The position numbers and the translations under genes were made by a program. 64,000 nt of DNA from Escherichia coli (GTDB lineage Bacteria > Pseudomonadota > Gammaproteobacteria > Enterobacterales > Enterobacteriaceae), in assembly GCF_044647545.1 (NCBI RefSeq), contig NZ_CP172818.1. The stretch is one strand, 5' to 3'. Shown in pieces: positions 39,862 to 40,531 of the stretch. Below the pieces are notes generated by a model. It was not told the origin of the DNA. It made no database searches and saw only the letters and a program-made list of their open reading frames with translations. The first letter of the stretch is position 1. The number at the start of each line of letters is the position of its first letter.

Positions 39862-39889
39862 AATGCCCGTCAAGGATTTGACGGGCATT
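39862..39889 (+). other. strong hairpin (12-bp perfect stem, 4-nt loop) downstream of yaiT
   Basis: aatgcccgtcaa-ggat-ttgacgggcatt; no U-tract follows, so terminator function is uncertain. Confidence 0.5.
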
Positions 39890-39907
39890 ACTGCAAAGGA
39901 CGCGCAA

Positions 39908-40531
39908 ATGTTATCTGTAGTTAAACCTCTTCAGGAATTTGGTAAGCTCGATAAATGTTTGTCCAGATATGGCACGCGCTTCGAGTTTAATAATGAAAAG
40001 CAAGTTATATTTTCAAGTGATGTCAATAGCGAAGATACTTTCGTTATTTTAGAGGGCGTTATCTCTCTGCGTAGAGAAGAAAACGTACTTATCGGTATTA
40101 CCCAGGCTCCTTATATTATGGGACTGGCTGATGGTTTAATGAAAAACGATATACCATACAAATTAATATCAGAAGGAAATTGTACGGGATATCATCTGCC
40201 AGCCAAACAAACCATTACCCTTATTGAACAAAATCAACTCTGGCGAGACGCTTTTTACTGGTTAGCCTGGCAAAATAGAATTCTGGAATTACGTGACGTA
40301 CAGCTCATTGGGCATAATTCCTACGAACAAATCCGCGCAACTTTATTATCAATGATTGACTGGAATGAAGAATTACGCTCACGTATTGGTGTGATGAATT
40401 ATATCCATCAACGTACACGCATATCGCGTTCTGTCGTCGCAGAAGTTCTCGCTGCTTTACGTAAAGGCGGCTATATCGAAATGAATAAAGGCAAACTGGT
40501 CGCTATCAACCGTTTGCCTTCAGAGTATTAA
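39908..40531 (+). CDS. yaiV: conserved protein, putative transcriptional regulator
   Basis: ORF runs 39863-40531 (222 aa), but the first ATG lies inside the hairpin stem; ATG at 39908 (MLSVVKPLQEFG...) is the more plausible start (207 aa). Confidence 0.6.
   Translation: MLSVVKPLQEFGKLDKCLSRYGTRFEFNNEKQVIFSSDVNSEDTFVILEGVISLRREENVLIGITQAPYIMGLADGLMKNDIPYKLISEGNCTGYHLPAKQTITLIEQNQLWRDAFYWLAWQNRILELRDVQLIGHNSYEQIRATLLSMIDWNEELRSRIGVMNYIHQRTRISRSVVAEVLAALRKGGYIEMNKGKLVAINRLPSEY

Follow-up and report, generated by a model that had tools for sequence, protein, structure and literature searches.

The 85-nt spacer between the autotransporter gene yaiT/ehaB and the regulator gene iprA (formerly yaiV) of Escherichia coli contains a perfect inverted repeat, one arm of which includes an ATG in frame with the iprA coding sequence. 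Two questions follow from this arrangement: which ATG starts iprA, and what role is played by a stem-loop that could belong either to the 3' end of one transcript or to the leader of the next. We analyzed a stretch of 64,000 nucleotides from an E. coli genome other than K-12 (the window, to which all coordinates refer unless stated otherwise) together with the equivalent region of related bacteria. So far as we found, the hairpin has not been annotated.

Genomic context of the spacer

The local gene order is yaiT/ehaB, the spacer, iprA, ampH and sbmA. ORFs and the annotation of K-12 and other strains place the 3' autotransporter fragment of yaiT/ehaB at 38401–39822 on the + strand, with a TAA stop codon at 39820–39822. 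The gene is split by an IS3 element at about 37113–38370, the insE and insF ORFs of which occupy 37125–38296 on the - strand. An IS3 in the autotransporter gene is K-12-like, yet the ehaB-iprA spacer is of a non-K-12 type; strain 7/2 combines a spacer identical to that of the window with an intact ehaB. The stretch from 39780 to 39960 is identical in strain 7/2 and about 680 further genomes.

The iprA coding sequence (39908–40531, + strand) specifies 207 amino acids and a stop codon according to RefSeq and K-12 annotation, NCBIfam and Pfam. Its product belongs to the IprA family (NCBIfam NF008810, E = 5e-138, 457.5 bits against a cut-off of 359) and is a CRP-like regulator whose winged HTH domain is C-terminal, with a match to Pfam HTH_46 and a weak match to the cNMP-binding family. 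Herman and colleagues reportedly found in 2016 that iprA keeps resistance to hydrogen peroxide in check in Salmonella, E. coli and Enterobacter. The convergent gene ampH lies at 40532–41689 on the - strand (ORF list and annotation). The stop codons of iprA and ampH are adjacent at 40529–40534 with zero intergenic space, so each transcript must enter the other gene in the antisense direction. A weak terminator-like hairpin for ampH is found inside iprA (40511–40498, - strand).

A stable stem-loop upstream of iprA

The RNA stem-loop occupies 39861–39890 on the + strand and reads TAATGCCCGTCAA-GGAT-TTGACGGGCATTA, within a region (39860–39910) that reads ...ataatgcccgtcaaggatttgacgggcattactgcaaaggacgcgcaaATG. 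Positions 39861–39873 pair with 39878–39890 in a perfect stem of 13 bp, with GGAT (39874–39877) as the loop and GCCC/GGGC recorded as an invariant core. The original prediction described a 12-bp perfect-stem hairpin; the inverted repeat is real, but its stem is one pair longer. The span given for it, 39862–39908, was right in overlapping the first ATG of the ORF, whereas 39908 is the second ATG and the hairpin stops at 39890. Calculation of the folding energy, which had been suggested as a check, confirmed a stable structure. The isolated hairpin has an energy of -19.8 kcal/mol, and a 108-nt context folds at -33.8 kcal/mol (z = -5.6), a stability equalled by none of 200 dinucleotide shuffles. 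Hairpins with a perfect stem of at least 12 bp and a loop of 3–10 nt are expected by chance at only 0.04 per 64 kb, as estimated from 200 first-order Markov simulations of the window.

The sole other real hairpin of that class within the window falls in the lac operator region. It is a perfect 13-bp inverted repeat at 13590–13624, in the lac control region (13560–13660, - strand). The lac operator O1 of the window reads AATTGTGAGCGAATAACAATT, where we take the K-12 counterpart to be ...GCGGATAAC...; the upstream flank reads GTGTGAAATTG, and that of K-12 is presumably GTGTGGAATTG. More differences from K-12 occur in the lac promoter and early lacZ, and identity of 99% or more across those 101 lac nucleotides is shared by only 95 of 5,014 E. 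coli genomes. Four more perfect hairpins, with stems of 9–11 bp (4843–4866, 7527–7552, 13363–13390 and 49019–49046; for example TTTCCGGCACC-gcttct-GGTGCCGGAAA), look like ordinary terminators. The window yields 13 scan entries with a perfect stem of at least 9 bp compared with 2.7 in the simulations, a count in which a single hairpin can be entered at several loop sizes.

Searches of the stem-loop against Rfam returned only chance matches of miRNA type, at 17 bits against thresholds of 70–100. Nor does the element behave as a REP/BIME or any other repeat dispersed over the genome, being present as one copy in the window (allowing up to three mismatches) and at a median of one place per E. coli genome, and a REP element was rejected on the basis of this single copy. 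A stem of 13 bp is too short for an RNase III site, and this candidate was rejected for that reason.

The start codon of iprA

The upstream ATG (39863–39865, + strand) lies inside the 5' arm of the hairpin, in frame with ATG 39908, which is 15 codons downstream. No Shine-Dalgarno sequence was found upstream of ATG 39863. ATG 39908 follows AAGGA (39896–39900, + strand) with a 7-nt spacer; the best anti-Shine-Dalgarno duplex of this element has an energy of -5.3 kcal/mol, and CAAGGAA is conserved in the alignment. Opening the initiation region would cost 17–20 kcal/mol at ATG 39863 versus 5–10 kcal/mol at ATG 39908. Positions 1–207 of the NCBIfam IprA equivalog profile (207 positions) align to residues 16–222 of the long ORF, and among the 120 homologues listed, the full-length proteins are almost all 203–208 amino acids in length. 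In addition, the 15-codon extension is broken in relatives: E. albertii has a TAG within it, most Citrobacter and Salmonella carry the upstream ATG in another frame or blocked, and C. gillenii (AAGCCC) and C. farmeri (ATTGCCC) have no such ATG.

Because the Shine-Dalgarno sequence, the opening cost, the start of the profile, the lengths of the homologues and the broken extension all agree, we conclude that ATG 39908 is the true start of iprA (yaiV), as the original prediction had proposed. The inference is correct but not new, since annotation has already adopted this start: RefSeq/PGAP and the K-12 reference (b0375, NP_414909.2, 394506–395129 in that genome) both start iprA at the equivalent ATG. 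ATG 39863 is not used; it is in frame by accident and forms part of AATGCCC, a conserved sequence of the stem.

It follows that the proposal that the hairpin sequesters a start at 39863 is moot, as this ATG is not a start. As to the suggestion of a translational control element, the functional Shine-Dalgarno sequence (39896–39900) and ATG (39908) are both outside the stem and unpaired by it, and so the hairpin is not of the kind that sequesters a start codon or ribosome-binding site. A leader-peptide attenuator was considered and rejected, as the upstream ATG is without a Shine-Dalgarno sequence and is not conserved. One could still suppose that the hairpin hides a genuine start at 39863 and thereby controls a longer, 222-residue IprA isoform with the N-terminal peptide MPVKDLTGITAK. 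The ATG is indeed in frame and the reading frame open in E. coli, and a 222-residue form of YaiV persists in older GenBank and JGI records. However, the missing Shine-Dalgarno sequence, the cost of opening the codon, the profile that begins at residue 16, the TAG in E. albertii and the displaced or lost ATG in Citrobacter and Salmonella already largely refute such an isoform, which we find scarcely credible. In practice, the 222-residue YaiV of older records is a mis-start and the 207-residue IprA is correct.

Conservation and covariation of the stem

We compared the regions upstream of iprA in 22 species-level genomes and 14 further contigs. Escherichia, Salmonella, Citrobacter, Raoultella, Yokenella and Trabulsiella all have the hairpin, and Kluyvera has a weakened form of it. 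Among 5,426 complete E. coli genomes, 5,387 carry it essentially unchanged. The alignment shows free divergence of the flanking spacer, in contrast to conservation of the hairpin and of the Shine-Dalgarno region.

The stem shows covariation. Across 21 distinct orthologous or paralogous sequences, both partners have changed in 7 of the 13 pairs, and pairing is kept in 90% of cells. None of 500 shuffles reaches this level of covariation; sliding the 3' partners by one to three columns lowers the pairing to 27–44%. Compensatory changes include a G-C to A-U replacement in C. rodentium (CCCATCA/TGATGGG), the rewriting of five inner pairs in Yokenella (GTCAA/TTGAC to ACCAT/ATGGT), outer-pair swaps in C. 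farmeri and C. gillenii, and GTCC/GGAC in place of GCCC/GGGC in C. arsenatis. The internal changes that affect one side only are U-G wobbles (L013, L023 and L035), and the Kluyvera hairpin keeps nine pairs by means of three G-U wobbles. These wobbles pair only in RNA of the + strand; the - strand, or a palindrome in DNA, would have an A-C mismatch at each of them. This indicates that the element is a structure of the sense-strand RNA. The loops vary (GGAU, GGAG, GGAC, GAAA, GAAU, GCAA and GACU). Selection thus acts on the structure and not on the loop sequence, and the comparative alignment shows a genuine RNA structure of the sense strand, with covariation between genera.

However, 22 of the 26 stem bases and the GCCC/GGGC core are near-invariant. 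This exceeds what the structure would need and may point to sequence-specific recognition of the stem.

In E. coli 23AR0998 (L028, 2440–2540), an IS1 end abuts the loop exactly (...GCATCACC|GGATTTGACGGGCATT, at the equivalent of window position 39874). This strain has lost the 5' arm and most of ehaB but has an intact iprA, and so carries a natural hairpin-less allele; the position of the IS1 junction may hint that the palindrome is a breakpoint. In C. farmeri (L037) and C. arsenatis (L041) there is a diverged module composed of an autotransporter gene, the hairpin and an iprA-like gene, with 56–59% protein identity. The genes downstream of this module are not ampH and sbmA but LacI-family and RbsD genes, or an M48 peptidase gene. 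The autotransporter gene, the hairpin and the iprA-like gene seem to move or duplicate as one unit.

Position of the hairpin and a putative promoter

The hairpin begins 38 nt past the ehaB stop codon, and from its base there are 5 nt to the Shine-Dalgarno sequence of iprA and 17 nt to ATG 39908. The distance to the iprA ATG is 14–22 nt in all lineages, compared with 22–47 nt from the upstream stop codon to the hairpin. In Kluyvera the autotransporter gene has been lost and hemB is the divergent neighbour, but the hairpin is kept, 14 nt from the ATG. It is also kept in the diverged autotransporter–iprA-like modules. By these comparisons, the hairpin is linked to the leader of iprA no less closely than to the 3' end of yaiT/ehaB.

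A second, small hairpin predicted from the fold, TTCTTCA-ctc-TGAAGAA (39825–39841, + strand), directly follows the yaiT/ehaB stop codon. By eye, hairpins of similar shape and different sequence occupy the equivalent position in Citrobacter, Salmonella and Trabulsiella (for example TTTCTC-tcag-GAGAAA and CATTCCC-taac-GGGAATG), and this position is also the site of a canonical terminator in Enterobacter and Leclercia.

The hairpin is separated from the start codon by 17 nt, too short a distance for a promoter, so iprA mRNA must either carry the whole hairpin or start inside it. A promoter on the 3' side was rejected, as no -10 element accompanies the TTGACG of the 3' arm. Initiation of the transcript inside the 5' arm is possible, and it would leave the hairpin unformed. 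Upstream of the hairpin there is a putative sigma-70 promoter (39828–39855, + strand) made up of TTCACT (39828–39833), a 16-nt spacer and TTTAAT (39850–39855), from which the predicted transcription start is at about 39861–39863, that is, at the first stem bases or the base of the hairpin. Upstream of the hairpin, at a distance of 5–8 nt, a TTTAAT-like box is conserved across most lineages, among them a diverged module (56% protein identity). In K-12, genomic SELEX with RNA polymerase holoenzyme recovered a site between yaiU and yaiV with the elements TTCACT-18-TTTAAT, flagged for H-NS (Shimada et al., PMC3946193). This promoter lead fits a protective stem-loop at the 5' terminus. On the other hand, a consensus promoter scan finds no promoter here and the hexamers are weak: the proposed -10 lacks the key A at position 2, and the -35 hexamer is not conserved. 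An alternative -10, AATAAT (39859–39864), would place the start inside the stem. No match to the spacer was found by gene name or coordinate in the SMRT-Cappable-seq and Cappable-seq supplements.

A predicted CyuR site upstream of yaiV (PMC11408624) overlaps the TTTAAT box and promoter stretch. At about 39843–39849, inside this predicted site, the window has a 2-nt deletion relative to K-12 (AATACTGGTAATTT to AATAGGTTATTT), which shortens the spacer between TTCACT and TTTAAT from 18 to 16 nt. A 66-nt query just 3' of the deletion (39845–39910) is identical in 682 of 5,389 records and differs at about one position in 4,706, so that a minority of E. coli carry the version of the spacer found in the window.

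Possible termination of transcription

A GC-rich stem-loop soon after a stop codon, with basal A-U pairs contributed by an upstream A-run and a downstream U-containing tail, resembles an intrinsic terminator, and the stability of the 13-bp stem (-19.8 kcal/mol) is as expected of one. However, unlike intrinsic terminators, the iprA hairpin is without the defining U-tract in E. coli and most of its relatives. The E. coli tail is AUUACUGC, with a T-tail score of 1.18. On the + strand the mean score across 20 lineages is 1.69, with 1.2–1.9 in most, whereas the canonical terminators compared (Enterobacter, Leclercia and L025; entries L033, L040 and L025) score 3.0–5.1. A terminator scan of the sequence did not call the hairpin. 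Because there is no U-tract, a canonical terminator is unsupported. Furthermore, the next start codon is only 17 nt away, and termination at this hairpin would also shut off iprA. Of the two alternatives in the original prediction, terminator or yaiT 3' stabiliser, the former is thus disfavoured in its canonical form, and a stabiliser or RNA-end barrier is plausible.

The main rival to the reading that we prefer (below) is a leaky intrinsic terminator or attenuator on the + strand, which would end or 3'-stabilise most ehaB/yaiT RNA and, through partial read-through, set the ratio of ehaB to iprA. The strong GC core of the stem and its position just past the ehaB stop are as such an element would require. 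The distribution of terminators among relatives also bears on this explanation. Enterobacter, Leclercia, Pseudenterobacter and L025/26 are without the hairpin and have, in the equivalent spacer, a textbook terminator that directly follows the stop codon of the autotransporter gene. The hairpin and the canonical terminator could be functional substitutes, and this pattern would favour termination; however, the hairpin-less genera are probably one clade, so the exchange is probably a single evolutionary event. Usable U-runs are found in Yokenella (UUUUUAUAC) and C. gillenii (UUUUAUG), but the tails of E. coli and most other lineages score far below those of canonical terminators. In Salmonella both genes are induced by NaClO, and unequally (1.1 versus 2.5 log2; PMC9065344), as partial read-through could bring about. 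Set against this are the failure of the scan to call the hairpin, its retention in Kluyvera, where there is no upstream autotransporter gene, and a spacing that is fixed to iprA and not to the ehaB stop. In addition, the K-12 3'-end map lists no 3' end for the yaiT-yaiV spacer (PMC7815308), with the limitation that yaiT is disrupted by IS3 in K-12. Considering these points together, we regard a leaky terminator as possible but rather unlikely.

We also considered a terminator acting on the - strand, or in both directions, that would halt antisense transcription arriving from ampH through iprA. As the abutting stop codons leave no room for a terminator between ampH and iprA, such a function is conceivable; the A-rich run that precedes the hairpin on the + strand gives - strand tails such as AUUUUUC, and the mean T-tail score of 1.80 on the - strand is slightly above the 1.69 of the + strand. 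These tails are nevertheless still well below those of canonical terminators, and the wobbles become A-C mismatches in - strand RNA. Rho would be expected to halt a 670-nt untranslated antisense RNA sooner. Since the tails of both strands are similar and weak, a terminator for ampH read-through is not favoured, and no - strand 3' end is reported here in the K-12 map (PMC7815308). We consider this explanation very unlikely.

Possible recognition by a protein

The near-invariance of the stem sequence is consistent with a binding site for a protein. One form of this idea is an RNA-binding protein that controls iprA translation, for example CsrA bridging a GGA in the loop (CAAGGAU) and a GGA in the Shine-Dalgarno sequence (CAAAGGA), which are 24 nt apart in E. 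coli. The E. coli hairpin resembles CsrA/RsmA hairpins in these two GGA elements and in a spacing that is compatible with a CsrA dimer, and in many species the GGA of the Shine-Dalgarno sequence lies in the loop of a mini-hairpin (UGCA-AGGAA-UGCA). Unlike in CsrA/RsmA hairpins, however, at least six lineages have no GGA in the loop: E. fergusonii (GAAA), C. farmeri (GAAU), Trabulsiella (GCAA), Yokenella (GACU), C. braakii (CGCAUU) and C. arsenatis (GUAAAU). A conserved pair of GGA elements is thus absent. In the portions of the CsrA CLIP-seq and expression tables that we consulted, yaiV is not among the entries, which is weak evidence against a CsrA site, and yaiT' is flagged only as a predicted target. 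Control of iprA translation by CsrA or a comparable protein appears improbable.

Alternatively, the element could be recognized as DNA. A perfect 30-bp palindrome of highly conserved sequence might be the operator of a dimeric factor, possibly IprA itself, which has the HTH_46 and weak cNMP-binding matches, and it would overlap the iprA transcription start. Symmetric half-sites would predict compensatory changes equally well. They do not account for the one-sided G-U wobbles (L013, L023 and L035, and three in Kluyvera), which keep the RNA pairing and break the symmetry of the DNA, and the five inner pairs rewritten in Yokenella would demand a co-evolving protein specificity. Nor does the palindrome match the FNR consensus. 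An FNR site was rejected, as the half-sites are in inverse order and the nearest FNR-like match (39770–39783, two mismatches) is inside yaiT. We give an operator only a slim likelihood.

A broader proposal is that AATGCCC...GGGCATT is a sequence-specific recognition element, as RNA or as palindromic DNA, for a dedicated factor, which could be IprA autoregulating its own gene. Such an element would couple the H-NS-silenced ehaB/seaB to the oxidative-stress regulator iprA, and it would travel as part of a three-part module, including the Citrobacter duplicates. This proposal is speculative and we think it doubtful.

A proposed protective stem-loop in the iprA leader

The explanation that we prefer is that the hairpin in the ehaB-iprA spacer, as part of the iprA leader, serves as a barrier at the RNA end or as an insulator and not as a switch. 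We put forward this candidate role tentatively, at somewhat short of an even chance. Transcription from the predicted weak promoter, or cleavage of ehaB-iprA read-through RNA in the AU-rich stretch just upstream, would by either route make the hairpin the very first part of the iprA mRNA, at its 5' terminus. In this position it might shield the message from 5'-end-dependent decay by RppH and RNase E, much as the 5' stem-loop of ompA does, and it may keep the adjacent ribosome-binding site free of pairing with upstream sequence. On ehaB transcripts the same hairpin would be expected to block 3'-to-5' exonucleases and to dampen read-through.

Emory, Bouvet and Belasco are said to have shown in 1992 that hairpins in the ompA 5' UTR stabilise the mRNA. 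The iprA hairpin resembles these in being a stable leader stem-loop located just 5' of a single-stranded ribosome-binding site, in having a conserved structure with an unimportant loop sequence, and in its predicted position at or within 1–2 nt of the 5' end. It differs in a stem that is longer and more conserved in sequence than simple end protection needs, and the 5' end is so far a predicted one.

A second precedent concerns the upstream gene. Intercistronic hairpins such as the REP sequences in malE-malF protect the upstream mRNA from 3' exonucleases. In addition, transcripts terminated by Rho are trimmed back to stem-loops (PMC6061677). Like both of these, the iprA hairpin is without a U-tract and is found between co-oriented genes, which matches the idea of a 3' stabiliser. 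However, unlike REP/BIME elements, it occurs once per genome and is without the REP consensus.

Implications

The stem-loop is a conserved feature of the RNA at a fixed distance from iprA, and it likely influences both the level of iprA mRNA and the coupling of this gene to the upstream autotransporter gene. In reporter fusions, deletions and complementation constructs for iprA, the hairpin should either be kept or be deliberately removed.
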